Shown piece by piece: positions 1 through 57,006 of a stretch of 64,000 nucleotides of DNA (positions are counted from its first letter, which is position 1; the number at the start of each line of letters is the position of its first letter). Below the pieces are notes generated by a model. It was given only the letters and a program-made list of their open reading frames with translations. It searched no databases and was not told the DNA's origin. The translations under genes were made by a program, and so were the position numbers. Source of the stretch: a bacterium. Its GTDB lineage: Bacteria > Electryoneota > Electryoneia > Electryoneales > Electryoneaceae. The stretch lies in NCBI GenBank assembly GCA_963675295.2, contig CAXXKJ010000002.1, forward strand, positions 2,112,001 through 2,176,000. Reading direction: 5' to 3'.

Positions 1-1870
1 GCACATCACCGTCACGCTGCGTGATCCCCTGTTTGTCGAACCATTCGAGCAACGGTACGCCGACCTTGCGGGACGTGCCCACGGCGGCGTTGAATTCGGT
101 CAGCCGAAATTCTTCGGGTAGTTCAATCAGCTTCAGGAAAGCCATATCAACGGATTTTCTGGCGAGCACCAACTTGTCCTCGAGGATGACCACTCTGTCG
201 ATGTTTTTGAGCGCCTTCAACAGCGCCCGCACACGGTTTTCCGCTAAGCCGAGATCTTCGGCGATCTTGGACGGCACCGGCGGATTCATCCCTGCATCGA
301 CCAGCAGCGAGAGAATCCGGTCAGCGTCCGCCTGGTCCGGCTTGGCGATGGCTGGGACATGCCCCGGCAACAGTACGTATCCACTCTCCCGGATCAGTTT
401 GTGGGAATCAACTAGTTCATGCAGCACATTGTCAGCAATCTCATAGGGTACGCCAGGACCAAAGACCTCCATGCCTAATACAGGTTCCGGCATTCCCGGA
501 TCGTTTGGGGTGGAGTGATGATACGCCGCTACGTGCTCCGGGATGGCATCCCGCCAACGGTTGTACACCGAAACGGGTAGCAGTGTCTCGATGGATTCAA
601 CCAGAAGCAGCGACTCTTCAGCGACGAGCTCCTGAATTGCGTGATCCAACTCCGCCCGCGACACCGGCAACATCGCCAGCAACGCCGGGATCGTCATCAG
701 CTTTCGCGTCTCGACCAGCGTACTGAGGACGACGTTGAGGTCCTGGTGCAACGCGCTCAGCCGTTCGGCGAGTTTCGGTGCCGACCGTTTGCGGTTCACC
801 GGGGCCGGGTCGAGAACACGCACTCCGCCCAGCGTGTCGGTAGGGGAGTAAAAGCGCAGCACGCCGAGGTCGCCGTGCATCGCGACCACCGGTTCTTCGA
901 GCGCGAGGCGTACATCGGCGCGTTCGTCCGGCTGCAACAAGTCCCGGTCGATGAGCAGCAGCCGTCCAAGCACTTCCGCGGTGCCGAGGTGCAGCCGGAT
1001 ACGCGCGCGCTGCTTCAGCGGACGGGCGTCCGGAGCCATCGTCACCGCGACGTCAAGGAAGTCGGTGACCACTCCGCGTCCGGCGTTGACCAGCATCTGC
1101 CCGCGTTCGGGGTCAGCGTCGGTGGTCAGGTTCAGCGCGGCACGATCTCCGGCGAACACCGTGTCCACCGGCTGTTCGTGCGCCTGCAGGCCGCGCACCT
1201 TGACCTCCTGATCGCCGGGCAAAAGGCGCAGTTTGTCGCCCGCCTTCGCGGACCCGTTCCAGACGGTTCCGGTGACCACGCGTCCATGCCCCTTGATCAC
1301 GAAGGAACGGTCAATCGGCAACCGGAAGAAGTCCTCTTCGCCCGGGGGCGGCGTCTCGGCGATCAGCTTGTCGAGCTCAGCCCGAAAGTCGTCGATCCCG
1401 CGTCCGCTCAGGCTGTCCACCGCCAGTACCGGCGATCCGGCGAGTGCAGTGCCTTCCAGCAGTTCGCGTGCTTCCTCGACGACGAGATCGAGCCAGTCCC
1501 CCTCGACCAAGTCGGCCTTGCTGATGGCGACGATTCCGCGCTTGACGCCGAGCGCGTCCAGCACCGTCAGGTGTTCCCGGGTTTGCGGCATGACCCCGTC
1601 ATCCGCCGCGATCACCAACAGCGCCGCGCTCATTGCGGATGCCCCCGCGATCATCGTTTTCACCAGCTTCTCATGGCCGGGGACGTCGACAAACGCCGCG
1701 CTGTCGCCGTAAAATGCGAAGCCGAGTTCGATAGTGATCCCGCGCCGTTTTTCCTCGGCCAGTTTGTCGAGGTCACGCCCGGTCAGCGCCTTGATCAGGG
1801 AGGTCTTGCCGTGGTCGATGTGTCCGGCAGTGCCGATGACGACATGCCGTCTGCGTTCGTTCTCGCTCAT
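1..1870 (-). CDS. selB: Selenocysteine-specific translation elongation factor SelB (3' end just beyond window edge)
   Basis: Manual minus-strand translation from ATG at 1870: [54 protein letters not shown] (GTPase domain); near window start [24 protein letters not shown] (SECIS-binding winged helix 4). Absent from ORF track because there is no stop in the window. Confidence 0.96.
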
Positions 1871-8159: not shown

Positions 8160-8164
8160 GGATC

Positions 8165-8393: not shown

Positions 8394-8430
8394 ATAGACG
8401 AAAACGTTGGAACGCTGAGGTGGAGACCCA

Positions 8431-9564: not shown

Positions 9565-10067
9565 GGCAACTCGGGAAGTGGACGGGGGTTCTGGCCCTGA
9601 CTTTGCTGCTCCTGCAGGTGAGCGGTTGCGGCGTTTATTCCTTCAGTGGTGCCGCGCCGAGTCACATCAAGTCGATCGCGGTACCGCCGTTCGACAACCA
9701 GACCGCGGAGTTTGGCCTGGCGCAGGATCTGGCCGATGCATTGATTGAGGAATTCGTTGACGACAACACCTTCAAGGTGTACGATCTGCGTCAGTCGGAT
9801 TCGGTATTATACGGCACGATTGTCCGCGTCAATGACGCGCCCAACACCATTACCGCGAGTGAAGCCGTTGAGGAGTATAAGGTTACGATCACGGTTCGCG
9901 TACGGTATGAAGATCTCGTGAAAGGCAAGGTTGTATGGGAAGAGACAATCTCGGCCTTCGGCATCTTCCCCGCTGGCGGTGGGTTGGCCGAACGGGAGGC
10001 GGGGGTGGAGGAAGCTACGAAGAAGCTGACCGAAGACATTCTCAACAAGACGGTGTCGGGATGGTAA
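9561..10067 (+). CDS. lptE: LptE family LPS assembly lipoprotein
   Basis: Lipobox VSGC then GVYSFSG, IAVPPFDNQT, C-terminal EDILNKTVSGW typical of FCB LptE. Confidence 0.8.
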   Translation: MRQLGKWTGVLALTLLLLQVSGCGVYSFSGAAPSHIKSIAVPPFDNQTAEFGLAQDLADALIEEFVDDNTFKVYDLRQSDSVLYGTIVRVNDAPNTITASEAVEEYKVTITVRVRYEDLVKGKVVWEETISAFGIFPAGGGLAEREAGVEEATKKLTEDILNKTVSGW

Positions 10068-35400: not shown

Positions 35401-37136
35401 TCGTCTACGACGAGGACATGGACGCCCTCAGCCGTGACAACATCCAGGACCTGCTACTCTACACCACCTTCCTCAAGCAGTCGGTAATGCTCACCTTCCA
35501 CGAGGAAGATTTCGACATCGACCAGGTTCCGGCGGGGGGGATCTGGGTCTCGCGTGTGCAGGCGAGCGGCACCTTCAGCTTCTACCGGGTCAGCGTCAAC
35601 ACCATCGCCGGCAAGCATTTCGACTTGCTGCTGATCCAGCGGCAGGACATGAACGCCCGCGCGGTGATGGACACCAACCACTGGATGATCGCCATCGGCG
35701 GGCACCCGTACGGCCAGCGCGTCCTGCCACGCTTCGGCTGCATCCGCCCCGAACTGGCGACCATGTCGCTGGAGTACGTTAACGAGCTGACGGCATGGGA
35801 GAAAATCCGCGAATTTGCCGGCAGCGCCTACCCGAACAACCCGGCGATTCATGACGCCGACTGGCGACGGCTGTACGTCACCGCCATGGCAACCTTCTTC
35901 CGCGCGTGGAAATATTCCGGCAAACGCATCATCCCCGGCGTGCTCGCGCCAACCAATGTCGTCGTGCCGGAACTCGACTTCCGTGAGGAGGCATTGATCC
36001 TGTCGTTGAGCGGTTGGGACGATTACACCACTCCGCGCTCCCTGATCCGTCCGCTGTGGGCGAATTTCTTCCGCAAAACGTTGGCGCTTTACCCGATGTC
36101 GGCAAAAGTGCTAGACGACGAGTGGCTCTTCGATGCCGCCATCGAAGGGCTGGGCGCGACAGAGGGCGAGGCGTTCCTGCGTGAGTTCGCCGCCGAGCTG
36201 GACGCCCGCGAGGTACACTCGTTCCCCGTCAGTTTCGTGCAGGCGTTGGACGACTACATCGACGCGCTCAACAAGCAGTGGTATGTGCCGCAGCCGTTGC
36301 GCAATGCGATCCACCGCTACCACACGTGGGAACAGCTCAACCCGAACGTCACCGCGCAGGCCCGTGCCGAGCTGCTCGAGGGCCTGATCGGGATGTACCA
36401 CCTCGCGCGCGCCGGAGAATTGGCACGCTATCACCTCTACCGCTACACCTACTTCGAACACGCCAACGAGACGGTCAAAGAAGCGTACGATCTGCTGTTA
36501 CAGCAGTTGTGGGCCGAACCGGAATTGCACGCCACCCAGCGTGTTGAGCTGTCCGAGCTGCAGGCGGTGCTGGAAACGCAGGAGGACCGCGAGGTTTTCA
36601 GCCGGCTCGTCTTCCCGCGCGCGCACCGCTCGGTGAACGTCGAGGTGATGACCTACGGCGAAAAGGGCCGCCGGCAGGTGGTCGTGCGCACTGATCTCGA
36701 GGACAACCACGGGGAACACTACGACATCCGCGAGCCGATCGAACCGGAGGAGGTCGGGTCGCTGTACCGCCTGTTCTACCAGGAACGCTTCCCGAAATCA
36801 GTCAGCGAACAGGACCGGCACATCGTCGTCACCGACCAAACCGGCCGCGTCATCGCCGGGCTGACATTCAAGGATCAGGAGAAGGACGTGGTCCACATGG
36901 ACGGCCTCGTCACCTCCGGCCCGTTGATGGGGCGGGGGATCGCTACCGCACTGCTCGAGGATTTTGTCACCCGCATGGCCAGCCGTGGTGTCAAAGTGCT
37001 CAAAACCGACTTCCTGATGCGCGATTTCTGCGAACGGCGCGGCTTCACCATCAACAAGAACTGGGGCGGCCTGGTCCGCTTCATCTCCCAGGAAGAACCC
37101 GAGCTCGATCGCGGCGACATCCCACGGGATGACTGA
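32424..37136 (+). CDS. 1570-aa multidomain protein: acyl-CoA synthetase-like adenylation domain, helical region, kinase-like fold, C-terminal GNAT
   Basis: MFTSGSTGRPKG, YLPLFH, GFGMTEATG, TGD, DRIKD, LTPKGTYKR; C-terminal VTSGPLMGRGIATALL..FCERRGF. Confidence 0.85.
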   Translation: MLETLSQLSDHLAAWASRPENSEQRTPLASAVLDAAAATLDDANDLLTEQQRDILIQFLEDTSRPDYLEALPDDDARHRWSDVALEAVERSGYTLETMLNARVREIPSQTYFEELKPGDSIRWSYAQVQRRVQAIAAVFLRDSGEDTPRVALQVDNSLDGACCDLACLLHDILIAPLNVHFDAEELAWIIERLDINTVVVDREDRLRRMHEVRKLTGKQFRIYAINLDRERVEGRAISLAESVARLSTDDVRKLLEHRPRFGLHDICTVMFTSGSTGRPKGVAFTQFNLVSKRFARHAALPSVGREEVLLCYLPLFHTFGRYLEMLGMLYWRGKYIFVGNPSTEALLAAIKRTRPTGLISIPLRWTQIRERSLSKMEQLTTSDAKLEAFQDITGGRLRWGLSAAGYLEPKAFRFFQTYGVDLCSGFGMTEATGGITMSPPGDYQDNTVGKPLPAMKIKLAKSGEMLIGGAYVARYLKEDGEGLEVEPGQVEDDGVEYLPTGDIFKRLKHGHLSIVDRIKDIYKNNRGQTVAPQRVERKFATVPGIKRTFLVGDHRSYNVLLIVPDLDDPVLTDAPDEESRRDYFRQIVTAANQDLAPYERVVNYTLLDRNFDADHGELTPKGTYKRKAIEKNFEDVIASLYESSHVDLEAAGVKVRIPRWIFRDLGILESDIAAKVSREAECDQGCLMLVDNVHRRSLLIRQDEQPDFIIIGDLSYNIRDGVLDLGLFARQPRLWMANPALMRFAPCREGWDVPFHKQVAPHAMLPKNEDYRSVELVQPVEPPHLSDTQLQELNLDLQVALFGTVEHALETLEKLRESLISYDDRLGGVARLRLTALATHPDEQVRCTAYRILLLDEPMLDYSVSFPAFVQSGLSFLNEESIKYISREGFGKRRLAALRQRLYAYRLHLKWPADPMVQRQFKNVFRLLVNFVRFNPEYYKTVRAELASWLLHRVDPQIARFAEMMLDHMVSWFEGRLVENAASVPETLLEEMLVYDEDMDALSRDNIQDLLLYTTFLKQSVMLTFHEEDFDIDQVPAGGIWVSRVQASGTFSFYRVSVNTIAGKHFDLLLIQRQDMNARAVMDTNHWMIAIGGHPYGQRVLPRFGCIRPELATMSLEYVNELTAWEKIREFAGSAYPNNPAIHDADWRRLYVTAMATFFRAWKYSGKRIIPGVLAPTNVVVPELDFREEALILSLSGWDDYTTPRSLIRPLWANFFRKTLALYPMSAKVLDDEWLFDAAIEGLGATEGEAFLREFAAELDAREVHSFPVSFVQALDDYIDALNKQWYVPQPLRNAIHRYHTWEQLNPNVTAQARAELLEGLIGMYHLARAGELARYHLYRYTYFEHANETVKEAYDLLLQQLWAEPELHATQRVELSELQAVLETQEDREVFSRLVFPRAHRSVNVEVMTYGEKGRRQVVVRTDLEDNHGEHYDIREPIEPEEVGSLYRLFYQERFPKSVSEQDRHIVVTDQTGRVIAGLTFKDQEKDVVHMDGLVTSGPLMGRGIATALLEDFVTRMASRGVKVLKTDFLMRDFCERRGFTINKNWGGLVRFISQEEPELDRGDIPRDD

Positions 37137-40009: not shown

Positions 40010-42643
40010 TTACCTCACCAGCATCACTTTCTGCGTGTGATCGAGCTGGCCCGGCACCGTTGCGCGGACGAAATACAGCCCGCTCGCCAGCGAGGACGCG
40101 TCAAAGCTCAACGCGTGCGTCCCGGCGGCGATGCTGCCGTTGTGCAGCGTCGCGACCTGCTGTCCGGCGACATTATACACCGCGACGGTCAGCTCCGCCG
40201 TTTCCGGTAGAGTGATAGTCACTGTCGCTGTGGGATTGAATGGATTGGGGTAGACCGGTAGCATGGACCAGGTTCTGGGCAACGATTCGGTCACAGATCG
40301 GTGCATCGTGTTGCGTTGGCAGGTTGAGGACCAATCCGCGATCTCAGCTGAACCGGTACCGGTCTCGCTCTTGCTGAACGGAAGCGGTTCCACGATCTGC
40401 GGATGCAGGAACTGGGATTTGCCGAGGAACGCGTACAAGATGTAGTTGCCCGGTGGTGCGAAGTCTGGGACAAATTGTTCGACCTCATAGATCGAGATTT
40501 CGTTCGGACGCAACGTGAACCGGTCTTCAAATTGAATCGGCCGGTAGAGCCAGCTTTCCTCGTATTTCACCTTTGTGAACAGAAAAGCCGGATCAACGAT
40601 GAAGTCCAGATGGCTTTGCGCGTGGATTTCGTAGCTGAAGCTCCCTCCTGATGCCGGGATCTCCGTGGAGGAGGTGGGGACGAGTGTCAGCTCAACATCG
40701 TTTGGATCGCTGATGGCTTCGTTGCAATCCACAACGCTAAGCATGGGTTTGGTTGGGATTTCGTTGTAATTGTCGAGGGCATAGGCGTACCCGTTTTCAA
40801 CAGCGATCGAAAGGACACCTGATTCGGTGTCTGAATAGCCGACCTCATGGATCACGAATGGATCGCGTATGTCGAGGATGCGGACTTCACTCGCCCATTC
40901 GGTGTCGCTGTATTGATATCCGATGCCGACATAGGCGAAGCCGTTCTCGATGACCACGGAGGACGCCGAAGCTTCGAAATCATAGTATGCAGCAACGGTT
41001 GGGTTGTCTGCATCGCGAACGTCAAGAACCCGGATGCCGGAATAATCACCGTATTGATTGTGGTGAGTGACGTACACGAAACCATTCGCGTAAGCCAGGT
41101 CTGTCGGTTCCCACCAGCTGTCAATGGTGGCAACGAGTTCAGGCAGCATGGGATCGCTGGCGTCAATGATGTGTACACCATGATATCGTGTACTCAGGTA
41201 GACCATTCCGTCTGCAGCGGCTATGCCGTTAGTCTCTCCTTCGAGATCGAATTCTGTCAACAGGCTTGGCGTTGTCGGGTCGGACAAGTCATAGATCAGC
41301 AAGCCATCGTGGTTGCCCATATACAGGTAGCCGTCATCGACGGTCAATCGGTAGCCACGTCCGCCCGTTAGACTTAGTTGAACAGGTTCGACGGGATTGG
41401 ATACATCCAGAACATACAGGATTGAATGCGTCGCGCTGACATAAGCCAGGTCGCCAACCACCTTTACGTCATACCCATCTGCAGGTGACAGGTCGAAGTG
41501 GCCAACTTCATGAGGGGAGGTTGGATCACTGACATCCACGATACGCATGTTGCCGTATGCTGGAGATTGATCGAGAACGTAGAGGTAGCCAGCTTCAACG
41601 TCCGCCGCTGCGACGTTTGGTGGGTCGATGACGGAGCGGAAGAATGCGTTTGCCGGATCATGGACATCCAGAATGCGGTAGCCAGCGGGTTTTCGGCCAG
41701 ATTGGTCACCTACTAACACATGAGCGAACCCATCTTGCACAACGCAGTTCTGCACACTCCAGTCTTCACCAAGGTCAAACAGTTCGATGATGTTGGTGAG
41801 GGATGATATATCCAGGATATGAAACGAATCGTACTCATAGTAGGCATACAACAGCTCACCGACGAGCTGAATGTCCGTGTACGAATGGCCCGAATTGTAG
41901 GGTCGAATAAGACTTGGATTCAGCGGATCACTGATGTTGATGAATCGGAGGCCGTCTGAACCTACTGCGAGAACCGCATAGTCGCCGATGATTTCGATGT
42001 CGTGAACACGCCAGCCCGGGTTGTAATGGTTGATGATGACAGGGTTGGTGGGGTCGGACGAATCCAGAAATACGATTCCGGTTTCATCATCCGCCAGCCC
42101 CACGCAAACCGTTGTGCCCGTCACCGACATGCAATGCGCATCTTCAAATAATGAATTTGAGTAAAACAGTGTTTCAGGGTTAGCCCTGTCGCTAACATCG
42201 ACAATGATTAAACGAGTGCGGGTGGTCATGTAGAGAAGGTCGCCCACGAGTTGCAGACCTTCTGTGCCACCGTGCTGCGAGCGGCTTACATCCACAGGCG
42301 CTTCAGGATCGCTTACATCTACGATGACCAGATCATTACCGACGATCCAATACGCATAGTCCCCTTCCACGATGAGGTTGTCCGTACGGGAGAAGGGTAT
42401 GGATAGATCAAAATATCCGACGACGACCGGATTGTCCGGGTCGGAAATGTCAACGACAGCCAGCATGCCATAGAGGCCGATGTAAGCGTAATCACCTTGG
42501 ATATCCAGACTTTCATCATGGAACATGGCCTGGTACAGAGTTCCTGTAACTTCTGCGTTGAAGCCGCTTTGAGCAAATGCGGGTAACATGGTTAGAAACA
42601 GGACGATAAGGAACACGGGCAGCGTAAGTCTGGCAATATTCAT
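40010..42643 (-). CDS. Secreted LVIVD-repeat (beta-propeller) protein with Ig-like domain and T9SS-type CTD
   Basis: Signal peptide; repeated YAY....L.IVDVSDP..P..VG; YPNPFNP...ASGLYFVR...QKVMLVR. Confidence 0.9.
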   Translation of the reverse strand: MNIARLTLPVFLIVLFLTMLPAFAQSGFNAEVTGTLYQAMFHDESLDIQGDYAYIGLYGMLAVVDISDPDNPVVVGYFDLSIPFSRTDNLIVEGDYAYWIVGNDLVIVDVSDPEAPVDVSRSQHGGTEGLQLVGDLLYMTTRTRLIIVDVSDRANPETLFYSNSLFEDAHCMSVTGTTVCVGLADDETGIVFLDSSDPTNPVIINHYNPGWRVHDIEIIGDYAVLAVGSDGLRFINISDPLNPSLIRPYNSGHSYTDIQLVGELLYAYYEYDSFHILDISSLTNIIELFDLGEDWSVQNCVVQDGFAHVLVGDQSGRKPAGYRILDVHDPANAFFRSVIDPPNVAAADVEAGYLYVLDQSPAYGNMRIVDVSDPTSPHEVGHFDLSPADGYDVKVVGDLAYVSATHSILYVLDVSNPVEPVQLSLTGGRGYRLTVDDGYLYMGNHDGLLIYDLSDPTTPSLLTEFDLEGETNGIAAADGMVYLSTRYHGVHIIDASDPMLPELVATIDSWWEPTDLAYANGFVYVTHHNQYGDYSGIRVLDVRDADNPTVAAYYDFEASASSVVIENGFAYVGIGYQYSDTEWASEVRILDIRDPFVIHEVGYSDTESGVLSIAVENGYAYALDNYNEIPTKPMLSVVDCNEAISDPNDVELTLVPTSSTEIPASGGSFSYEIHAQSHLDFIVDPAFLFTKVKYEESWLYRPIQFEDRFTLRPNEISIYEVEQFVPDFAPPGNYILYAFLGKSQFLHPQIVEPLPFSKSETGTGSAEIADWSSTCQRNTMHRSVTESLPRTWSMLPVYPNPFNPTATVTITLPETAELTVAVYNVAGQQVATLHNGSIAAGTHALSFDASSLASGLYFVRATVPGQLDHTQKVMLVR

Positions 42644-43218: not shown

Positions 43219-44670
43219 TTACCTGACGAGCATCACTTTCTGCGTGTGATCGAGCTGGCCCGGCACGGTCGCGCGGACGAAATACAGCCCGCTCGCCAGC
43301 GAGGACGCGTCAAAGCTCAGCGCGTGCGTTCCGGCGGTGATAGTGCCGTTGTGCAGCGTCGCAACCTGCTGCCCGGCGACGTTGTACACCGCGACGGTCA
43401 GGTCCGCCATTTCCGGCAGCGAAACGCTGATCGTCGTCTCCGGGTTGAACGGGTTCGGATAGGCCGCGCCAACCGCGTACTCGTGCGGGAGTTGCGCGTT
43501 TTGCGTCGCGTCAGCCGTGACCTCGAAGCCGGAGGCCACCCAGTCGTCGGCGTCGAACGTGAACGCCGCGTCCGTATTCGCACCCGCCTTGGTGAACTCG
43601 AACGTGTCCATCACCATCAGGTTCGGATTGTTCGGCACGCCGGCGGTCGCCTGGAAGGTGTACGTGCCCGCGGGCGCGTACGACGGCACGTCCTGCGTCA
43701 GGCCGGTGACGGTGACGTCCATGAACGGCGTCAGGTTGAACGGAATGTTCGCCGTCGGACCGACACGGCTGCCGTTCGGCAGGGTGACATAGGTCCGGTA
43801 GCGTAGACCGTTCGCGGACATGGCTGTGTTGTTGACGAATGATGCGTCATAGACGACGGTTCCGCCGCCGACGGGGATGTCGGTCACCTGCGGGGTCAAT
43901 GTCAGCACCGCCGGATCCTGTTGCCCGGTGCCCGCCAATTCCATCGCCGATTGCACGATTTCATGCGAGGTATCGTTCTGCACGAACGCGACGATCGAGA
44001 TGTTGTCGTCCTCGATCAGGTCGTTGTTCAACGTGACTGGCCACGCGAACGAAACGTCGAAGGTCTGGACGTCGTTCGGCTGCATGTCGATGTCCTGCCC
44101 GGCGTGCGACGGTGCCATCTCGAGCATGTCATAATGCCATTCGCTCTGGCCGTTGTTGCCGGTCCAGTTGTCGTAGAAATTCTCGACCAGGCCGATACGC
44201 AGCTTGTAATTGCCGGAGAAGACGGCGTCACCGTTGGTCACGGTAATCGTCGCATCAACCGAGTTTGTACCAATCGTGGACGCGATTTCGATCTGGATCG
44301 GAGCCTCAATCGCAAGCCGGTTGTTCACGGCGGTCTCAAGCAGCGCTGGAGTGATCGGCCAGCGGTCGAGCAGACCGTCCACCATCAGGGTCGGTAGCAG
44401 GCTGACTGGATAGTAGTTGAATCGTCCGAGGTGATCGGTGGGGTTCAGTGTGGTCCACGGTTCGGGACCGTACCAGTTGGCATGGTAGACGATGTACGAG
44501 ACGTCGTCCATGTTGTCTTCGAAGAACGCTTGAACCGTCTGCGCCGCAGACGGACAGGTGCCTCAACCATGGCCCGTGTACTTCTCGAACATCACCTTGC
44601 GGGGGAAGGGGGTAGCTGTGGTCGCGATCAGCATGACGGCCATCAGCCCCACCGCAAAACGTGCGCGCAT
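43219..44670 (-). CDS. Secreted selenoprotein: Omp28-like thioredoxin-fold domain (UxxC), Ig-like domain, T9SS-type CTD; in-frame UGA at 44563-44565 read as Sec
   Basis: GGAGG + ATG 44670, signal peptide, RKVMFEKYTGHG-UGA-GTCP, in frame with the 43219..44511 ORF; hairpin after the UGA; selB in window. Confidence 0.85.
44535..44565 (-). promoter_or_regulatory. Putative bacterial SECIS element
   Basis: mRNA: UGA-GGCACCUGU-CCGUCUGC-GGC-GCAGACGG; 8-bp stem, G-initiated loop 17 nt after the UGA. Confidence 0.75.
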
Positions 44671-44783
44671 GAATGCCTCCTGTTCGTGTCGTTGTCTGGT
44701 ATCCAAACAACGGGTTCACCGTGCGAATAACTACCAAAATGTGTCTCTAGTCTAGGCGTTCGAACGGCAGTAGACAAATAAAC

Positions 44784-45306
44784 TACCCCGCAGCAAGCTA
44801 CGGGGTATCGACTACTCACAGCTCAAGTCGACTTTGATGTAGCGGCTGGTAGTTAGCTTCTGTACCTTGGTTCATAACGTATTTTCTGATTGTATTTTCG
44901 TCACCGTGCGGACCTACGGTGGATATATAATAACCTTTTGTCCAAAATTCCCCACCCCAGAGCTGCTTTTTAACTTTGGGTTGTCGGATAAACATCTCTC
45001 GTGCTGTTATGCTCTTTATAGTTCGTACTAATTTTGTAGCACTCATGGTTGGCACGGATTGCACTAAGAAATGCACATGATCTCTATCTATTCCAATTTC
45101 TATAAATTCTATTTCATAACGTTTTTGGATTTCAAAGCAGATATCCTTTAATGTTAAATCTATCTCAGGTTCATCAAATACAACACGACGGTATTTCGCT
45201 ACACATACAAGATGGTATAGCAATATCGATACGTTGTGTTGTTTTCGGATCAGCTCAGACATTCCACAAGAAACCAACTGCAGCTGGCCGAAGCAAGCTT
45301 CGGGGC
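44784..45306 (-). mobile_element. IS200-type insertion sequence (tnpA only) with subterminal hairpins
   Basis: AT-rich; hairpins TACCCCGCAGCAAGCTACGGGGTA (44784-44807) and CCGAAGCAAGCTTCGG (45288-45303). Confidence 0.85.
44816..45262 (-). CDS. tnpA: IS200/IS605 family Y1 (HUH) transposase
   Basis: YHLVCVAKYRR, DHVH (HUH), KSITAR, LWGGEFWTKGY, IRKYV.NQ. Confidence 0.95.
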   Translation of the reverse strand: MSELIRKQHNVSILLYHLVCVAKYRRVVFDEPEIDLTLKDICFEIQKRYEIEFIEIGIDRDHVHFLVQSVPTMSATKLVRTIKSITAREMFIRQPKVKKQLWGGEFWTKGYYISTVGPHGDENTIRKYVMNQGTEANYQPLHQSRLEL

Positions 45307-45573
45307 ATCAACCGCACTGGAGTGAAATTATCGACTTACGCTGATTCATCGCTCGGGAGATCCAATACCCCAGCAGCCTGGTCGCCGCTCCGCTGGCCAA
45401 GTGCCCGGCCCATGAAACGCGAACCGGGCTACCTCTAAACCACCAGCTCGCCTGGAACTGTCTCTCGGAAAAGACACCACCCTCATCTTGACAACAAGAT
45501 TGGATTGCAAGTTCGTTTATGGAACTCAGTTCAGCAGAAGCGCGGAACGTTTTACAATCAGGGAGAAGACAGC

Positions 45574-46071
45574 ATGGCGCAGGAAACGAGGATGACGATT
45601 CTCAGCAGCACCGGTGCGTTTGACTTTACCAACGGCTGGACCGGCACCGTCCCGGTCAACGGCGGCACCGGCTACTTGTCGGCGACGCTCGAGGTGCTCA
45701 ACTCAGCCGGTCTGAAACAGATCCGGTTTGGCTGGCGGCCGATTGTGAAGAACGACGCCAACCCGCCGCAACAGATCGAGACCCGCTGGCTGCCGGTGTT
45801 CATCGATCTGAAGGGGATCTCCACCGGCGAGGGCCATTTCGCCGAACTGCCGGACTACGGCTATCTCTACAATCTGACCAGTGCGGATCTCGAGTCAAAT
45901 ACCAACTATTACCTGTATTTCGTCCATCCGGAAACCCCGGCGGCGGTACCGTTGCTGCGTGACGAGGGCAACCATCATGACGGCATCGAGATCCGGGTGT
46001 ACGCGTCGAAAGATGTCGGCCTCAGCGCCTTCACCTTCCGGCTCAATGTGCTCGCCTCGGTGGAAGCATGA
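45574..46071 (+). CDS. Hypothetical beta-rich protein, no signal peptide
   Basis: GGGAG before ATG 45574; overlaps the next gene by ATGA; paralog at 38962. Confidence 0.7.
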   Translation: MAQETRMTILSSTGAFDFTNGWTGTVPVNGGTGYLSATLEVLNSAGLKQIRFGWRPIVKNDANPPQQIETRWLPVFIDLKGISTGEGHFAELPDYGYLYNLTSADLESNTNYYLYFVHPETPAAVPLLRDEGNHHDGIEIRVYASKDVGLSAFTFRLNVLASVEA

Positions 46072-47417
46072 GGGCGAACGCACCCGGACGGTTCCGTCAT
46101 GGTGTCCACGGTCCCGCCGGCCGGACCAACGGCCACGGCACCTGGTGGGAACCCGACATGTTTCCGTTGTACGACCTGCTCAACGATCCGCCGACGCTAC
46201 GCGAGGTGCGGGACTTGCGTACAAAACGGGCGAGTCTGCCGACAAACACCGTGGACGGCTTCAAGCTGCTCGCGACCGGCGGTGTCTGCACCACGGAAAA
46301 GGTGTACCGGATGTCGATGTTCCGTCATCGGCTGGAGTTCAACGGCACGAGCTATAACCACGCGGCGGTCGTGCGCGGCCCGGCGTATGGGTCTGTTCCA
46401 CCGGCGAACGGGGAGTATCCGATTCTGCTGCTGCTGCATGGCAACATCACCGACGCCATGCGCCGCAACAAGATCACCGACTGGGACCGGCTGCTCGCGG
46501 CGAACAAGTTCTACACCGACCAGTGTGTCGTCGTCTTTCCGCTGTATTTCGGCTACCGGATGGAACTTCCGGAAAGTAGTAGCTATGGGGTGGAGTGCGA
46601 GGAATCCCTCCACCAGGCGGGCTACCCGAAGTTCAACGGGCAATCCTTCGAGACGCTTCCAGTGGACGATCCACTGTTCAAATCCGACTATCTCGCAGAA
46701 GGGTTCAGCGCCGACGATGTCCAGATCATGGCGATCCTGCAGGCGGTGACCGCGGTCCGGCAACGAAGCCCGGAGTTCGGTGTTAGTTTGAATGGCGACA
46801 TCGGTCTGCTCGGCGGCAGCCTTGGCGCGAGCATGGTGTACAAGGTCGCGCCGGTGCTGCACGACAACGGTCTTCCCGCGACACTCAAGGCGACCATCGC
46901 GCTCTAGGGCGGAACGGATCAGTATGCGCCGTTCAACGTCCGCCGCGCGAAACGGTGGCTAAACAGCGCATTGTACTACCGCCGGCAGGACCCGATCTAC
47001 GGGTCGGTGATCGACCGTGGCCGCAGCTATTCCGACATCCTGTTGAATCAGAAACGGCGGTTGGAATCGGAGGGAGTGGTCGAATACATCCTCGGCCGGT
47101 CGGACCCGACACATTACGTTCCGCCTGATCTCAAGAAGATCCTCCGCCGCTGGTTCCTCGAGGACTCAGTGGCGTGGTACTGGCGGTACAATAGCGGCCC
47201 GTATCCGATTCAGATCCATCATGGGGTCTTCGACGACACCGTTGCGGTCGACAACAGCCGTTGGTGGGCGAAGGTGATGCGGCAGCAGGAAATCCCATTC
47301 GACCTGGACAACTTCTACTATTTCGAAACGCCGACCGGTGAGCACAAAGCGGGTTCGCTGAGCAACGCGTCCCGCGTCGCTATGGCAACCGTCCTGGCGA
47401 ACAGGCTGGGGTACTAG
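46068..47417 (+). pseudogene. Alpha/beta hydrolase interrupted by an in-frame TAG at 46905-46907 (nonsense allele or readthrough)
   Basis: PILLLLHG and GGSLGA nucleophile elbow before the TAG; HHGVFDDTV (Asp) and GEH (His) after it in the same frame. Confidence 0.7.
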
Positions 47418-47591
47418 CGGTTCAACCCGCACGTGTTTGCATGCAAGCGCAGGTTGATAACGACGGATGGCCCGGGTCGTTTTACGACCCGGATGTCCCC
47501 ACTCATGCCCACGACATTTATTTCGCGGATGATCCGCCGGTCGCACATGCCCCTGTGACCCGCGTGTCTGTGTGCGCGGATCGCAGGACTA

Positions 47592-49097
47592 TCATTGCTT
47601 CATTGCAAGCTTTGGTCCTTCGAACGGCGCAGCGACAACATCGAGGTGGCGTGGCGGATCGAAGTCAACCTCGGTGCCACCAGTGACCGTGAATGGGAAA
47701 AACGCTTGGATAGTATGCTGTGGTCCATTGTCTGTGTAGGCACCGGCACGGACGATATAGTTGTACTCGCCGGATGCTGTGTTCGCAGGGATACTTTGTT
47801 GTAAATCGGCTTCATACGTCCCATTTGCAGGGACAGTGATGTCTTCCCAGACACGAAGCGATTCGCTCGGATACCCTGCTGGACCTCGCACGATCACCCA
47901 GACATCGGTAACAATGTCAACATCCGTATTGTTGGTCAGTGTGCCATGCCAGGTGAATCGATTCGGAGGGTGAACACTGTTCAGACTACGATTGGGTCGT
48001 GCTGAGATTTCCAGGTCGGTGTGGCCGGCGCTGAACTTGGCGAGGAAGACATTGGTTTCAAATTCACCGACTCCGTATTCCCCGAATACGACGATCTCTC
48101 CCAATCGACTGACGGCTGCGATATCTCTTTCGATGTAGACGCAATCCTCGACAGTGCAATAGTAATCCCAAGTGAACAACGGAGTTCCAGTAGCATCGTA
48201 CCGTGTGAATTCCAAATTGCTTCCGTCGTGGTGTCTGTAGGAAATCGAACCGCCATCGGGCATACCGTATAGAGGAAAATAGGGTCCAAGGCTCATCCCT
48301 TGGTGCCCCCAATAGTTGATAATTTCGCCATCTGGGGAAAGGGTTAGTCCGCTGTACATCGAATCCGCATCCATGGCGAGCTGGCCAGCGATCAGTAGAT
48401 TTCCGTCCGGCAAAACCTCGGAATGGTAGGAGGCATGCACAGACAGACCATTCTGCCTGATGAACACAGTGGAATCCTCAATCGTACCGGATGGGGATAT
48501 GTCATAAACGATGATGCCATATGATGTAACAACAGGATGAATCAATCCTGTGACCGTTGAATTCACGCTGTAACAATGCTGGTTAACTATGCCTCCAAGC
48601 AAGGTTGTCCACATGAGCGAACCGCTATCACTGTATCTGCTTACAAATGTTCTGTGCGTCATATCTCCACAAGAGACAAACGTACCCTGTTGATGACGCC
48701 CAACATCGTGGATCCAACCGGGTGCGACGTCAGTCAGAAACTCAAATCCAGTTCGAAAGTTCAATACCGCCAGCATTGGTTCAGAATAAGTCGTGGCAAA
48801 ACGATTGCGGCCAATTCGTTCAAGAACACGTCCATGGTGACCCTGTGTTTGCTGTGTCCACAGATGAGCTCCCTCGGAAGACATCTTATCCAGCATCATG
48901 TCATTCGATTGCAGCCGTGACGTTACAAGCAGATCGCCATTCGCACAGAATTCGACATCACCCATGCCATCGTTATCGTCATTGCCAATCTGCACCTCCC
49001 ACAGCAATTCACCTGGTTGGGCCGATGAATCCGGAGGCAGCAATGCAAGCAGAAACAGGCACAAACTCAGCAAGGCAATACTACGAGAGGTGATCAT
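47592..49097 (-). CDS. Secreted beta-rich protein with C-terminal Ig-like domain (paralog of 37246-38817)
   Basis: Signal peptide; shared C-terminal domain; similar LPDGNLL and PDGG motifs. Confidence 0.8.
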   Translation of the reverse strand: MITSRSIALLSLCLFLLALLPPDSSAQPGELLWEVQIGNDDNDGMGDVEFCANGDLLVTSRLQSNDMMLDKMSSEGAHLWTQQTQGHHGRVLERIGRNRFATTYSEPMLAVLNFRTGFEFLTDVAPGWIHDVGRHQQGTFVSCGDMTHRTFVSRYSDSGSLMWTTLLGGIVNQHCYSVNSTVTGLIHPVVTSYGIIVYDISPSGTIEDSTVFIRQNGLSVHASYHSEVLPDGNLLIAGQLAMDADSMYSGLTLSPDGEIINYWGHQGMSLGPYFPLYGMPDGGSISYRHHDGSNLEFTRYDATGTPLFTWDYYCTVEDCVYIERDIAAVSRLGEIVVFGEYGVGEFETNVFLAKFSAGHTDLEISARPNRSLNSVHPPNRFTWHGTLTNNTDVDIVTDVWVIVRGPAGYPSESLRVWEDITVPANGTYEADLQQSIPANTASGEYNYIVRAGAYTDNGPQHTIQAFFPFTVTGGTEVDFDPPRHLDVVAAPFEGPKLAMKQ

Positions 49098-49185: not shown

Positions 49186-52128
49186 CTATTTCAGCAGCAT
49201 CGCCTTGCGGGTGACGGTTTCCGTGCCGTACCACACCTGCACCAGGTACAGCCCGCTGGCGAGGTTGTGTTGACCGGCGTCGAACGTCCATTTCGTCTGA
49301 CCCGCGCCACGCTCGCGCAGCGTTTCCGCCGCCACCTGCCGCCCGAGCACATCGACCACACGAATCCGCACGTCGCCGCGTGACGGCAGCTGCAATGTCA
49401 TCGTGAACGACGGATTGAACGGGTTCGGGGAAATATTCAACGTGAATGCCGCCGGCAGCATCTCTCCGCTTTCCAGTGTTTCGCTGTGTCTTTCCTTTTC
49501 TCTGGTCAAATCACGTGCGAAGGACGGCGGCGGATTCGGCTTATCCCAGCCGGTTAGAGCCCAGGTCTCGCAGGATTCATCAAACTGAGGGATTTCTGCA
49601 GGTGTCCTGGCTGCTCGCGATGCTGTTGTTCCTAATGCCAGCTTGGTAAACTGAAAAGTATCCTGCGTCGCTACCAGGTCCGGGTGAACACCAACTTTAG
49701 CGGTGAAGGTATAGGTTCCCGAGGGAGCGAAACGTGGTACGGCGAGTGACATCCATTGGCGAGCAAATGTTTGACCTGGAGTCAATTCCAGTGAATACAT
49801 CGCCACCGTTACCGTTGTGCCGCCGGGCAGTGTCGCCTCCGTCCAGGCATCAGCGATAAAGGTTTCCGGCAACGCATTTGTCAGTGTCACGTCGAAATAG
49901 ACTCGGCCGCCGAAGGGGGGAAGAGTCTGAGACGGTTCGAACGGGTCAAGCGTCAGGGTAACCGGCGCCAGCCAGTTAACTTCGGCAGGATCTGTGTGAT
50001 TCGATTCACCGCCGGCAAATAGGGCCGTGACCGTATAGCGAAACAGACCGTGGCCCGGTAACGTATCCAGGTACGTTGTAGTAGCCGACGTGCCGATCTG
50101 TATACCATTCCTGTAAATGCGATACTCGAGAACCTCCCCGCCACCTTGAGGTTCATCCCAGGCGATGGAGACTGTCCCATCTCCGTCAAGTACGGCCGTC
50201 AGATTCGACGGATCCTCGATACCTCCAATCACACTGGACAAATCGAGCTGGTAAAGACGAGTGCCAATGACAGCCCAGGCCGTGGGTCCCTCGGCGACAG
50301 TACGAATGACGTAGTTGGTACCTTGCAGACTGGCAATTTCCTGCGGATTTGTAAGCGTACTGACGTTGTAAACATGGAGGCCGCAGTCGTCGTACGGACC
50401 GACAATTGTAGCGTATAGCTGGTTCCCGTCGAATGCACCGCCGGTAAAATCCGCCTGCGAGCTGGTCAGTTCCGTGGCGATTGTCAAAGACGGACCTCTG
50501 GCGTCCACCAGGGTCAGACGCAAGTCATCCTGGCAGATCGCGATCCTGCTGTCCGAGACCGAAAACTGATGGGTGTAACGAGAAGTGCTGGATTCATAAT
50601 CGACATTGAGACTCTGCTCCAGCGTCGGATTCAAAGGACTGCTTACTGTGTATTTTCTCAAATATGGCTCATGCAATACGTACAGGTTCTCGTCTTCCAT
50701 CGCAAACCGGTCGGAGGGATCGAATCCGTTGACCTCGCCCAGAAGAGTCGGATTTGCCGGATTGGCAACATCGTATGCCTCAACTGTCCCGCCAGTCCTT
50801 AATCGGTAGAGGATCTGGCCGTTCGTTTCGATTTCGTACGTCGCACTCTGGAAGTAACGGATCTGTTGGGGGTTTTGCGGATCCGTGAAGTCAAAAACAT
50901 AGAGTCCGGTGGGCACAGGCGTGTAGTGATTGCACACGTACAGGTAGTTCCCAACCCAGACCATGTCGGCGATCCGCCCACCATCGAGAATATGAGTGTC
51001 GACCGGGTGTTCCGGGTCTGACCAGTCGCTGACCCAGACACCGTTCGAAGAACCGTATTCCTCAGCTGCCACCGCTATCAGGTTTCCCTGTCGTTCCACG
51101 CACGTCCTGAAGCCGGCTGTCCACCCGGCAGTTCCCAGCCATTCGGGATCTGAAAGGTTTGCGACTCCATGAACAGCGATAGCCTCCTTCTCAGAGGAGC
51201 TGTAGACCACATTTCCATTGGTCGGGGAAGGAATAAGAAAGTCCGCCTGGTGATTCTCAATCGTCCCGGTCAATACAGGCAGTGACGTTCCAGAAACGCT
51301 GAAGAGCTTTAATGAGTAGCCACTCTCAACCAGCAGACGATTGTTGGTTACCGTCATTGCCTTTGACCCGTCCGGACAATTGATGGTATAGACAGTACCC
51401 AGATTTGCCAGGTCCGATGCTTCAACCGCCCGGATCTGGTCCTCCAATCCACTCAAGTAGATTACTCCGGAATCATAGGCGACGGATTCCTCAGCATGGT
51501 CCACCGAATTGTCGAGTTCGACAATTTGAGCCGGATTGCTGATGTCCAGTGTCACGAGATGGTCGTAAATGTTGTGGGCTGCAATCAGAACGTTTCCATC
51601 GTCTGAGAGATCGTAGCTGTGCAGCTCATACAGGCCGTTCTGATAGACAGTCTGCAGGTTCAATGGATCCGAAATGTCATAGACCCAGAGACCCTCGCCA
51701 TCTTCCGACCTGTACAGGTAGCCGTTGATGAGTTCAAGGAAGTCCGTTGTAAACGGCAGGTTCGCCACCTCACCGAGGTACTGTGGACTAGCTGGATCAC
51801 TGACATCATAGACCGTGGCGGGATCTTCAGGATAGGAATTGGCGTACAGGTACTGGTCGTTGACCGCCATCTGCCAGATGATATTTCCGGGTTCAAGTTC
51901 CGCCACTGGTTCCGGGTTGAATGGATCAGTGATGTCGACAATGGTGATCCCGGAGTACCGCCCGGCATGGAACAGGTAATTGCCTTGAATCTTGAACTCG
52001 TAGGTTTCTCCATAGACCTGTTTTAAGCTTTCTCCGGTAACATCGATATTCCACAGTTCCCACTGCTGGGCGGATGCAACCGTTGCCACAACGATGAGGG
52101 CGCTGGCGACGAAAACTGAAAGCTTCAT
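49186..52128 (-). CDS. Secreted LVIVD-repeat protein with FN3-like and Ig-like domains and T9SS-type CTD
   Basis: MKLSVFVASALIVVATVASA signal; ITIVDITDP repeats; PSNLTA..W....YRIYRNG FN3; PNPFNP...RKAMLLK. Confidence 0.9.
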   Translation of the reverse strand: MKLSVFVASALIVVATVASAQQWELWNIDVTGESLKQVYGETYEFKIQGNYLFHAGRYSGITIVDITDPFNPEPVAELEPGNIIWQMAVNDQYLYANSYPEDPATVYDVSDPASPQYLGEVANLPFTTDFLELINGYLYRSEDGEGLWVYDISDPLNLQTVYQNGLYELHSYDLSDDGNVLIAAHNIYDHLVTLDISNPAQIVELDNSVDHAEESVAYDSGVIYLSGLEDQIRAVEASDLANLGTVYTINCPDGSKAMTVTNNRLLVESGYSLKLFSVSGTSLPVLTGTIENHQADFLIPSPTNGNVVYSSSEKEAIAVHGVANLSDPEWLGTAGWTAGFRTCVERQGNLIAVAAEEYGSSNGVWVSDWSDPEHPVDTHILDGGRIADMVWVGNYLYVCNHYTPVPTGLYVFDFTDPQNPQQIRYFQSATYEIETNGQILYRLRTGGTVEAYDVANPANPTLLGEVNGFDPSDRFAMEDENLYVLHEPYLRKYTVSSPLNPTLEQSLNVDYESSTSRYTHQFSVSDSRIAICQDDLRLTLVDARGPSLTIATELTSSQADFTGGAFDGNQLYATIVGPYDDCGLHVYNVSTLTNPQEIASLQGTNYVIRTVAEGPTAWAVIGTRLYQLDLSSVIGGIEDPSNLTAVLDGDGTVSIAWDEPQGGGEVLEYRIYRNGIQIGTSATTTYLDTLPGHGLFRYTVTALFAGGESNHTDPAEVNWLAPVTLTLDPFEPSQTLPPFGGRVYFDVTLTNALPETFIADAWTEATLPGGTTVTVAMYSLELTPGQTFARQWMSLAVPRFAPSGTYTFTAKVGVHPDLVATQDTFQFTKLALGTTASRAARTPAEIPQFDESCETWALTGWDKPNPPPSFARDLTREKERHSETLESGEMLPAAFTLNISPNPFNPSFTMTLQLPSRGDVRIRVVDVLGRQVAAETLRERGAGQTKWTFDAGQHNLASGLYLVQVWYGTETVTRKAMLLK

Positions 52129-52306
52129 TGATTGGTTCCTCCCGGAATAATGGAAATCGACGTCATCGAAACAGCGGGCGCCACACAGACCGGCTGACCC
52201 GGGTCGTCGTGCGCCCCGGGCTTCCTCGTTGTACCCCTTTAAACGACATGCCCCAGACATTCATGTCTGGGCTACTCCGCGCTTACATCCAGACGCAGGC
52301 GCCGCC

Positions 52307-54766: not shown

Positions 54767-54921
54767 TTCATCCTCCCTGGATGATGATTCATGGTGCGCA
54801 AAGATTCGGCACCGTGCGGACATTGGGGGTTCGTTGTAATGTGGGGGAAACGTGCGGCGTGGTCAAGCAAACCGGAAAAAATCATAGGATTCCCGGCCGG
54901 CGTGTCTCGGCTGCTGAGACG

Positions 54922-56200: not shown

Positions 56201-56236
56201 AGTTCATCGTCCTCGTGGTGAATCTTGCTGATACAG

Positions 56237-56310
56237 TGGGCGTTACTGGAGTCGAACCAGTGACCTCTGCCATGTCAAGACAGCGCTCTAACCAACTGAG
56301 CTAAACGCCC
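56237..56310 (-). tRNA. tRNA-Val(GAC)
   Basis: GGGCGTTTAGCTCAG...CTGTC-TTGACAT-GGCAG...GGTTCGACTCC. Confidence 0.93.
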
Positions 56311-56401
56311 GAAGGTACAACGAACCGGTGAATTCAGACAATGCCGGTCAGGAAGTTTGCAGAGCAAGCCGGGCGGATGGTATCCGGCCACCCGTTCCCG
56401 C

Positions 56402-56487
56402 TGGTGCCGGGAGCCGGACTCGAACCGGCACGGGGAAACCCCCGGGAGATTTTAAGTCTCCTGCGTCTGCCATTTCGCCACCCCGGC
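56402..56487 (-). tRNA. tRNA-Leu(TAA)
   Basis: GCCGGGGTGGCGAAATGGCAGACGC-AGGAGA-CTTAAAA-TCTCC, long variable arm, CCA end. Confidence 0.93.
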
Positions 56488-56585
56488 GTGTGCAGGTGGG
56501 GCGGGAAACGGAGGAGCCGGTGATGCTGGCCCATCCATGGTCGTCAAAGAACCGTCCGGCGTACTTTCGTGCCGCTTCAAACACC

Positions 56586-56661
56586 TGGAGGCGGCGGCCG
56601 GATTCGAACCGGCGAATAAAGGTTTTGCAGACCTTCGCCTTAGCCACTTGGCCACGCCGCC
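56586..56661 (-). tRNA. tRNA-Cys(GCA)
   Basis: GGCGGCGTGGCCAAGTGGCTAAGGC...CTGCAAA...GGTTCGAATCC, CCA end. Confidence 0.93.
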
Positions 56662-56755
56662 TTGTGGTCAGTATCGACCATTACCAAACGGTAATGTACC
56701 TCGGCGAGGTGGAAAAACCCCGGACCAGGCGTCCTTGGGGACCCTCACCCGGGGC

Positions 56756-56831
56756 TGGAGCGAGAGACGGGACTCGAACCCGCGACAACCACGTTGGCAA
56801 CGTGGAGCTCTACCAACTGAGCTACTCTCGC
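56756..56831 (-). tRNA. tRNA-Gly(GCC)
   Basis: GCGAGAGTAGCTCAGTTGGTAGAGC-TCCACG-TTGCCAA-CGTGG...GGTTCGAGTCC, CCA end. Confidence 0.93.
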
Positions 56832-56933
56832 TAGCTGTCAACCGTATGAGAAACCGAAAAACTCTCATACGTTTTTGCAACGACCGGAGAAGGTAACTCC
56901 GGCCATTCTGGAATGCAAGATCCCCTGAGTACG

Positions 56934-57006
56934 TGGAGCCTAGCGGGATCGAACCGCTGACCTCCTGAATGCCATTCAGGCGCTCTCCCAGCTGAGCTAA
57001 GGCCCC
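56934..57006 (-). tRNA. tRNA-Ala(GGC)
   Basis: GGGGCCTTAGCTCAGCTGGGAGAGCG-CCTGA-ATGGCAT-TCAGG...GGTTCGATCCC. Confidence 0.93.

Follow-up and report, generated by a model that had tools for sequence, protein, structure and literature searches.

The closest characterized counterpart of the gene described here is HBP35 of Porphyromonas gingivalis, a type IX secretion system (T9SS) cargo, according to PMC3120885. In the parts of Shoji et al. 2010 (PMC2907840) that concern its activity, HBP35 outpaces Escherichia coli thioredoxin in insulin reduction, the C48S/C51S mutant loses thioredoxin activity, and the protein binds hemin, is required for growth when hemin is scarce, and reportedly makes up for the defect of a dsbA mutant of E. 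coli. The gene in question lies on the minus strand of a 64-kb window, the whole stretch of DNA analyzed here (C2:2112001-2176000), in the 4.8-Mb, two-contig genome of an uncultured bacterium of another phylum, and its reading frame is interrupted by a single TGA at a position that aligns with the first redox cysteine of HBP35. We report that this is, on well-supported grounds, a real selenoprotein gene, and that its product is a selenocysteine (Sec)-containing, T9SS-tailed member of the HBP35/Omp28 thioredoxin-like superfamily.

A second line of kinship leads to selenoproteins that were catalogued before. Table 1 of a 2026 review (PMC13188914), as far as that table goes, equates the NCBIfam model NF045500, "Omp28-related selenoprotein," with the "Hypothetical protein GOS_C," and because of this equation, NF045500 can be linked to the 2008 Global Ocean Sampling (GOS) study. 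In the passages of the latter on GOS_C (PMC2398784), the protein is predicted to adopt a thioredoxin-like fold, to have many Cys homologues, and to carry a selenocysteine insertion sequence (SECIS) directly after the UGA; no functional evidence is stated there. Of Omp28 itself, Pfam says no more than that it is an outer membrane protein.

The UGA codon, the downstream hairpin and the selenocysteine machinery

The features of the gene are collected in Table 1. The sequence-only reading of the window had proposed a frame that starts with an ATG behind a GGAGG and runs through one TGA, with Sec at codon 36 of 483, and every element of this proposal was reproduced from the letters: the start codon occupies 44670-44668, a TAA at 43221-43219 ends the frame, and the translation is otherwise open. 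U36 and C39, the latter encoded at 44554-44556, are the sole Sec and Cys residues of the protein. The same frame is kept in the homologues on both sides of the TGA. Public records bear out the suspicion that gene callers would truncate this gene: the three database relatives recovered by a word-indexed protein search are 430, 424 and 386 amino acids (aa) long and all lack the N-terminus, and the closest of them, the 430-aa form, bears just the name "T9SS type A sorting domain-containing protein." Gene callers cut off the front end because the active-site Sec is read from an in-frame UGA. A promoter scan near the gene yielded no signal above chance.

Table 1. Coordinates of the selenoprotein gene, its parts and selB in the window
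Feature	Positions	Strand	Description and basis
Full selenoprotein gene	43219..44670	-	483 codons plus TAA, UGA36 read as Sec; translation with TGA = U
Shine-Dalgarno-like GGAGG	44676..44680	-	5 nt before the start codon; read directly
Signal-peptide-like N-terminus, residues 1 to ~21	44608..44670	-	Two Arg, then a hydrophobic run; by inspection
Sec codon UGA, residue 36	44563..44565	-	First position of the U-G-T-C redox motif
Bacterial SECIS (bSECIS) core hairpin	44535..44553	-	Stem of 8 bp with GGC as the apical loop; 17 nt from the UGA to the loop
Thioredoxin-fold domain, residues ~22-120	44311..44607	-	UxxC and invariant Pro93; AlphaFold2 (AF2) model and profile matches
Omp28-type beta-sandwich, residues ~121-245	43936..44310	-	PF11551 and Foldseek match 2r2c
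Immunoglobulin (Ig)-like beta-sandwich, residues ~254-361	43588..43911	-	AF2 model (residues 245-483)
T9SS type A C-terminal sorting domain, residues 404-483	43222..43461	-	PF18962 and TIGR04183
Translation table-11 open reading frame (ORF)	43219..44511	-	430 aa from Met54; without signal peptide and redox motif
selB (Sec-specific elongation factor)	1..1843	-	TIGR00475, 324.4 bits vs. cut-off 242.25; trans-acting

The comparison with homologues carries most of the argument. In a six-frame search of 61 related genomes, the listed matches to the N-terminal domain, counted by hand, number 21, of which 18 contain exactly one TGA and 3 contain none. A codon-level check of 26 loci, the best fetched matches rather than a random sample, found TGA at the codon aligned to U36 in 19 and TGT or TGC in the other 7; identity across the 19 TGA loci ranges from 27 to 92%. 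Together with L023, a paralogue from the same genome that is without the first Cys at the aligned position, these loci make up the 27-row alignment used throughout. On a maximum-likelihood tree of the 27 domains, the Sec/Cys state switches five times, and well-supported branches force at least four of these switches. Conservation at the protein level extends, in frame, over the 20-35 residues upstream of the TGA, and these follow a recurrent layout: a leader that is basic and hydrophobic, then a site of the small-x-small type, then the motif F-P-R-K-V-x-x-E-x-F-T.

The wider family points the same way. When 1.84 billion cluster representatives were searched exhaustively with a profile, 14,390 relatives emerged at an E-value of 1e-3 or better, 6,823 at 1e-10 and 1,306 at 1e-30. 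Among 152 database relatives, CxxC occupies the U36 column in 121, about 23 begin no more than two residues past this column, and the remainder are multi-domain proteins or have other residues there. N-termini that fall just past the U36 column are what gene-caller truncation of Sec forms would be expected to leave. The sequence-only reading had asked for homologues with either Cys or UGA at this position, and the aligned loci and the prevalence of CxxC supply exactly that.

A related-locus search with the single protein found one locus, from a relative 91% identical. The stretch around the TGA is letter-identical in contigs of two samples, X1 (record 6, 43441-44800) and X4 (record 16, 44433-44629), which belong to one study and one of which may be the source of the assembly; because these contigs and separate genomes keep the TGA, a sequencing error is excluded. 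A contig of run X6, about 90% alike over 43344-44777, is not used as evidence of expression or habitat.

Directly downstream of the UGA, the perfect 8-bp hairpin that had been pointed out from the letters was confirmed, with the 5' arm at 44553-44546, the loop at 44545-44543 and the 3' arm at 44542-44535. The eight uninterrupted pairs begin nine bases past the UGA, and the energy of the stem-loop is -12.5 kcal/mol. The legend to Fig. 2 of PMC13188914 gives, for bSECIS elements, a loop of 3-9 nt whose first or second nucleotide is G, 4-16 bp in the upper stem, a distance of 16-37 nt from UGA to loop and an energy of -7.5 kcal/mol or better, and the hairpin lies within all these bounds (3-nt loop, G first, 8 bp, 17 nt, -12.5 kcal/mol), so the bSECIS check proposed from the letters turned out in favor of the hairpin.

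A strict search, which considered uninterrupted stems only and scored the energy of the stem alone, detected a G-loop hairpin at 16-20 nt spacing in 16 of the 19 Sec loci and reached -7.5 kcal/mol in 12, whereas none of the 7 Cys loci reached this value, the best being -2.1 kcal/mol. Of 3800 mononucleotide shuffles made from the 19 Sec regions, 114 contained a model-conforming hairpin at -7.5 kcal/mol or better and 31 one at -10 kcal/mol or better. When the 19 Sec forms are aligned without gaps over 48 nt, 77% of the cells in helix columns 13-20/24-31 are paired, compared with 32-47% in slid controls; changes on both sides occur in 7 of the 8 helix pairs, and the covariation score is 0.41 vs. 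0.16 in shuffles, a value reached by 0 of 500 shuffles. For the 7 Cys forms, the paired share of cells at these columns is 41%, within their own slid controls (23-45%), and one Cys form encodes nearly the same post-motif peptide as a Sec form with other codons and no hairpin. As judged from these alignments, covariation marks the hairpin in the Sec forms, and the Cys forms are without it. An unusual Sec homologue was also encountered (L057, G012:C17, codon 907-909), in which the motif reads U-G-G-S, the resolving Cys being gone, and which retains a hairpin, displaced by one codon, of 7 bp and with the loop GUU.

The genome encodes the complete apparatus for Sec insertion. The sequence-only reading had noted selB in the window and proposed a search of the genome for selA, selC and selD; selB was recovered where expected (C2:2111996-2113843 in the genome; the window edge truncates it at the 3' end), and selA (524.7 bits), selD (370.1 bits) and the tRNA-Sec gene selC (68.6 bits) are all present, so that each of the four scores above its curated cut-off. 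The tRNA-Sec was not found inside the 64-kb window with ARAGORN and is located elsewhere in the genome. TGA is not reassigned here: it terminates 21 of the 33 window ORFs of at least 300 aa, including ORFs with clear Pfam domains, and is otherwise a normal stop codon here. The selD gene (L002, C2:1038834-1039763) itself contains one in-frame TGA, and therefore, selenophosphate synthetase is a selenoprotein in the same organism.

The obvious alternative is that the TGA is a true stop in a decaying or mis-started gene, the product of which would be the 430-aa ORF from the ATG at 44511 or a 35-aa peptide, with the upstream frame a mere relic. Table-11 ORF calling and the public records of the closest relatives give this very form, and no stop codon is commoner in the window than TGA. 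Such a gene, however, would hardly keep its TGA at one conserved codon in 19 loci of such divergent identity, in alternation with Cys, nor would its 35 upstream codons be conserved as protein; moreover, the 430-aa product would combine a secretion tail with no signal peptide, which is a further argument for read-through, and a thioredoxin fold with no active site, next to a hairpin that covaries and in a genome with the full Sec machinery. We consider this alternative extremely improbable.

Flanking coding conservation and Cys or Sec at the aligned position were both found, as in a SelB/SECIS-dependent selenoprotein, and comparison shows UGA36 to be a Sec codon that would be recoded via the downstream SECIS hairpin and the genome's own SelA, SelB, SelD and tRNA-Sec. 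The case for recoding consists of the alternation of TGA and Cys codons, the covarying hairpin, the complete sel set and the use of TGA as a normal stop elsewhere. The hidden selenoprotein suspected at the outset thus has 19 TGA and 7 Cys loci, a covarying SECIS and four sel genes behind it.

Fold, active site and predicted export of the product

The AF2 model of residues 1-250, built on the 27-row alignment, has a predicted local distance difference test (pLDDT) value of 90.6 and consists of a leader helix, a thioredoxin fold and a beta-sandwich. The latter matches Pfam PF11551 (Omp28) at residues 85-244 with 43.1 bits vs. a gathering threshold of 34.9, which places the protein in this family. 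In a Foldseek search against the PDB, the best match to the model, over both domains, is HBP35 (5y1a; E-value 2.1e-13, TMq 0.75), followed by the DUF1223 protein 2axo (1.1e-8) and by the Omp28 domain 2r2c (1.6e-4), and a sequence profile search of the PDB also puts HBP35 first (E-value 8.2e-7), with thioredoxins and DUF1223 matched as well. The profile alignment superimposes the family motif C-G-x-C on C48-G-Y-C51 of HBP35, putting U36 and C39 on C48 and C51, so that U36 occupies the position of an experimentally essential Cys. Thioredoxin domain, beta-sandwich and a redox motif at the C48/C51 site are all in place, and comparison shows a thioredoxin fold with Sec at the first position of U-x-x-C, fused to an Omp28-type beta-sandwich, that is, the two-domain architecture of HBP35. 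The claim made from the letters that an Omp28/thioredoxin-like domain has U at its first redox Cys therefore held, given the Pfam match and the alignment of fold and active site. The motif that had accompanied it, ending in C-P, fared less uniformly: it fits HBP35 and the window protein, but the family consensus is C-x-x-C-A.

Conservation within the family is concentrated on the U/CxxC pair, the loop around Pro93 and core positions of the thioredoxin fold. Pro93 is invariant in the 27-row alignment and aligns to the I-P-T loop of the thioredoxin 1fo5, from which it appears to be the cis-Pro of the thioredoxin fold. These observations bear on the possibility that the protein is a surface selenoprotein that mainly binds a ligand, be it hemin, as in HBP35, a metal or a metalloid, or that it reduces a peroxide or a metalloid. 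The hemin binding of HBP35 and its requirement at scarce hemin, in the passages of PMC2907840 cited above, speak for such a role, and so does the Pfam description of Omp28, which goes no further than the outer membrane; the residues that the family conserves, however, are those of a thioredoxin-type active site and its scaffold. We therefore regard a primarily ligand-binding or peroxide- or metalloid-reducing function as unlikely, if by a lesser measure than a true stop at codon 36.

The signals for export would lie at the two ends of the protein. The signal peptide claimed from the letters was recovered as an N-terminal signal-peptide-like segment that is conserved in frame upstream of the UGA, by inspection; in the AF2 model, the leader is a low-confidence helix (residues 3-15), and in the homologues, the small-x-small site closes the leader ahead of the conserved F-P-R-K. 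Residues 245-483 are modeled as two beta-sandwiches (pLDDT 80.3), the second of which is the sorting domain, and a fold search with this C-terminal half returned only generic tandem beta-sandwich matches. The sorting tail, also proposed from the letters, exceeds the cut-offs of both Por_Secre_tail (PF18962, residues 404-469, 40.8 bits vs. 27) and the T9SS type A sorting domain (TIGR04183, 41.3 bits vs. 23) and so belongs to the latter family. A search of the genome for T9SS machinery, which covered PorU and SprA, found both (708.7 bits vs. 420 and 830.1 bits vs. 200, respectively). Among 10 sampled relatives of the N-terminal domain, 7 have the tail, including Cys forms and truncated, presumably Sec, forms. 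Export of the selenoprotein to or beyond the cell surface is what we infer from these features.

The Ig-like domain and the tail together form a module of about 235 aa (43222-43938, residues 245-483) that recurs at no fewer than 25 other loci of the genome with 42-60% identity, for example, at C2:3574881-3575588, C2:4057854-4058546 and C2:4356819-4366554, with several copies in a row around C2:4.356-4.366 Mb. Dozens of proteins that are otherwise unlike one another, here and in relatives, carry it as their C-terminus, including proteases and beta-propellers; neighbors of the selenoprotein gene with LVIVD repeats or a C10 peptidase are among the loci concerned. Such strong conservation of a shared pre-tail domain is unusual.

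Could the protein instead stay behind the outer membrane? A genuine selenoprotein of the periplasm or of the inner face of the outer membrane, acting as a DsbA/DsbG-like folding catalyst, with a C-terminal beta-sandwich that is not a T9SS signal, would accord with the exported selenoproteins of Table 1 in PMC13188914, which are periplasmic UxxC types as far as that table shows, with the dsbA complementation reported for HBP35 in the relevant passage of PMC2907840, and with the putative status of T9SS function in the host phylum. The tail, however, passes both curated T9SS type A models, the same module sits on dozens of proteins of the genome, proteases and beta-propellers among them, PorU and SprA are present, and the tail recurs in most of the sampled relatives. 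A periplasmic location appears improbable on this evidence, slightly more so than the ligand-binding role and clearly less so than a true stop.

The reading that we favor as a whole, and consider very probable, is that the gene encodes a 483-aa, T9SS-tailed, HBP35-like surface selenoprotein that carries out thiol-disulfide exchange or reduction. UGA36 would be recoded to Sec through the SECIS hairpin 17 nt downstream, the preprotein would pass the inner membrane by means of its signal peptide, and the type A sorting domain would hand it to the T9SS, with SprA as the translocon and PorU as the sortase, so that its final location would be the cell surface or the space beyond it. At this site, the U36/C39 selenol/thiol pair would cycle between a selenenylsulfide and the reduced form and perform thiol-disulfide exchange with, or reduction of, an external substrate. 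Sec is more nucleophilic than Cys and resists irreversible over-oxidation, and these properties might explain its presence in place of Cys outside the cell.

Several observations weigh against this interpretation. The protein scores 55.3 bits with the NF045500 model, far below the cut-off of 200, and thus falls outside that curated family, and its likeness to HBP35 is remote (16% identity, profile E-value 8.2e-7). In the hairpin survey, 3 of the 19 Sec loci, the most distant ones, have no conforming uninterrupted hairpin or only a weak one, and 4 further loci fall short of -7.5 kcal/mol under stem-only scoring; the 76-nt region as a whole is not more stable than shuffles (z = -0.30), so only the local hairpin stands out; and Rfam at gathering thresholds reports no family at the SECIS site, its only matches in the window being five tRNAs. 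The putative signal peptide was judged by eye, from its basic n-region and hydrophobic run, and the clean A-x-A of the homologue leaders is missing in the 483-aa protein. For sorting by the T9SS outside the Bacteroidota, the argument is the presence of the domain and of the genes, from which actual sorting would have to follow. The sole contig from the RNA-library run X5 (268 nt, at 44088-44343, about 97% identity) stops short of the UGA; it may come from a relative or from DNA, proves nothing about the UGA and, like the X6 contig, is not taken as a sign of expression or habitat. More generally, Sec insertion is read from the comparison of genes, and export and enzymatic activity are predicted.

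Neighborhood and other contents of the window

Genomic context offers little guidance as to function. The sequence-only reading had suggested that the protein might mature or protect the neighboring secreted proteins, but the gene neighbors differ among the three genomes of the genus compared, with no stable partner, and since the neighborhood is not conserved, this role is unsupported. In the window, an IS200-type transposase gene lies upstream of the selenoprotein gene and a gene for an LVIVD-repeat T9SS protein downstream; in one relative, the selenoprotein gene is located about 1.1 kb from a gene for a 1570-aa AMP-binding/GNAT protein, and in the other, two tandem Sec copies lie between the AMP-binding/GNAT gene and the gene for an 873-aa T9SS-tailed protein. 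The AMP-binding/GNAT gene is the only neighbor shared with the two relatives examined. In the window, its 1570-aa product is encoded at 32424-37136 (+) and combines an N-terminal AMP-binding enzyme domain with a C-terminal GNAT acetyltransferase. The IS200-like Y1 transposase gene (44816-45277 (-), Pfam 124 bits) is situated directly upstream of the selenoprotein gene and is followed by a 10-bp hairpin at 44784-44807; the closest relative has a different gene upstream.

Two tandem Sec copies in one relative occupy L089 (G002:C14:48000-64000, ~7461-10520), with 62 and 51% identity to the window gene, and other genomes of the family (G005, G008, G012) have at least 3-5 Sec paralogues.

The region covered by the window is rich in T9SS cargo. 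It encodes a streptopain-type Peptidase C10 (25735-27675 (+)), which has a Spi-inhibitor-like prodomain at its N-terminus and is T9SS-tailed, and three large T9SS-tailed proteins (40010-42643, 49186-52260 and 52307-54823, all (-)), two of which contain LVIVD beta-propeller repeats. The ORFs of 188, 279 and 501 aa at 45505-49097 have no Pfam match. A five-tRNA cluster occupies 56236-57006 (-) and comprises Val-GAC, Leu-TAA, Cys-GCA, Gly-GCC and Ala-GGC.

The selenoprotein among its known relatives

The branch represented by this gene escapes the curated selenoprotein model, and its public records are N-truncated, devoid of both the signal peptide and the active site. As a consequence, the counts of the selenoproteome and of T9SS cargo are too low in these lineages. 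If the surface location is correct, current annotation hides such proteins as N-truncated "T9SS sorting domain" proteins. A T9SS-sorted selenoprotein would, if real, put selenol chemistry at or beyond the cell surface, and selenol redox reactions outside the cell could then contribute, for instance, to the reduction of external disulfides, to heme capture or to the handling of metalloids or peroxides. Whether these would be the first bacterial selenoenzymes placed on the cell surface by the T9SS, representatives of a Sec branch of the HBP35/Omp28 superfamily that multiplied in an uncultured phylum and repeatedly swapped Sec and Cys, is in our estimate an even bet.

The literature bears on this question mostly by its silence. 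By term search, secretion terms and HBP35 (hemin) were not found in the portion of the 2026 review available (PMC13188914), nor was "signal peptide" in that of the 2008 GOS paper (PMC2398784), the passages of which contain no Omp28, HBP35 or T9SS. In full-text searches, omp28 was not found together with selenoprotein, nor selenoprotein together with "C-terminal sorting domain"; selenoprotein and "type IX secretion" co-occur only in work on rabbit diet, and selenocysteine and T9SS only as single mentions in papers that, from their excerpts, look unrelated.

Less can be claimed for novelty of kind. The sequence-only reading had presented the protein as one of a little-charted kind, and in this respect it went too far, as Omp28-related UxxC selenoproteins are already catalogued as GOS_C/NF045500. 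The homology to NF045500 is clear: the Omp28-like/thioredoxin-like domain matches with an E-value of 6.6e-15, residues 17-243 falling on profile positions 32-265, and the single Sec in UxxC that Table 1 of PMC13188914 lists for that family corresponds to U36-G-T-C39 in the thioredoxin fold here. The two differ in the C-terminal part, profile positions ~268-374 of NF045500 being unmatched in the window protein. Stretches that do match this part are thrombospondin type 3 repeats, on which ground a T9SS tail at the end of NF045500 itself was considered and rejected. Across the phylum, 62 of 79 genomes have a match to NF045500 and 0 of 79 have one over the cut-off; of the roughly 120 matches listed from these genomes, about 30 contain one TGA, by a count made by eye. 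The protein is, accordingly, a distant relative of NF045500/GOS_C, a new branch with a different C-terminal architecture and not a new kind of selenoprotein.

Other described families share parts of this design. The Omp28 lipoprotein of P. gingivalis (PF11551, 2r2c, NF033782) has the same beta-sandwich, aligned at residues 85-244, but the window protein scores 39.9 bits vs. 150 with the NF033782 lipoprotein model and is without a lipobox Cys, there being none before residue 36, so that it lies outside the lipoprotein family; unlike the lipoprotein, it is T9SS-tailed and contains Sec. The DsbA-like and DsbG-like selenoproteins and the thiol:disulfide interchange protein, as listed in Table 1 of PMC13188914, are likewise exported thioredoxin-fold proteins with Sec first in UxxC, but they belong to other families, are periplasmic and have neither a T9SS sorting domain nor an Omp28 domain. 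DUF1223 proteins (PF06764; Atu2684, PDB 2axo) show the thioredoxin-plus-beta-sandwich layout, and the profile match spans the CxxC; the Pfam score, however, is 14.6 bits vs. a threshold of 30.7, and DUF1223, of unknown function, is without Sec and without a T9SS tail.

It is HBP35 that comes closest in overall design. Both proteins begin with a signal peptide, a putative one in the selenoprotein, and combine a thioredoxin fold, its motif at the same site, with a beta-sandwich of the Omp28 type and a T9SS domain at the C-terminus. HBP35, however, has Cys rather than Sec, is only about 16% identical, and comes from P. gingivalis and not from an uncultured bacterium of another phylum; hemin binding is known for HBP35 alone, and the selenoprotein adds an Ig-like domain before the tail. 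The match in fold and active site nonetheless gives the "hypothetical" selenoproteins of the GOS_C type a characterized Cys counterpart.

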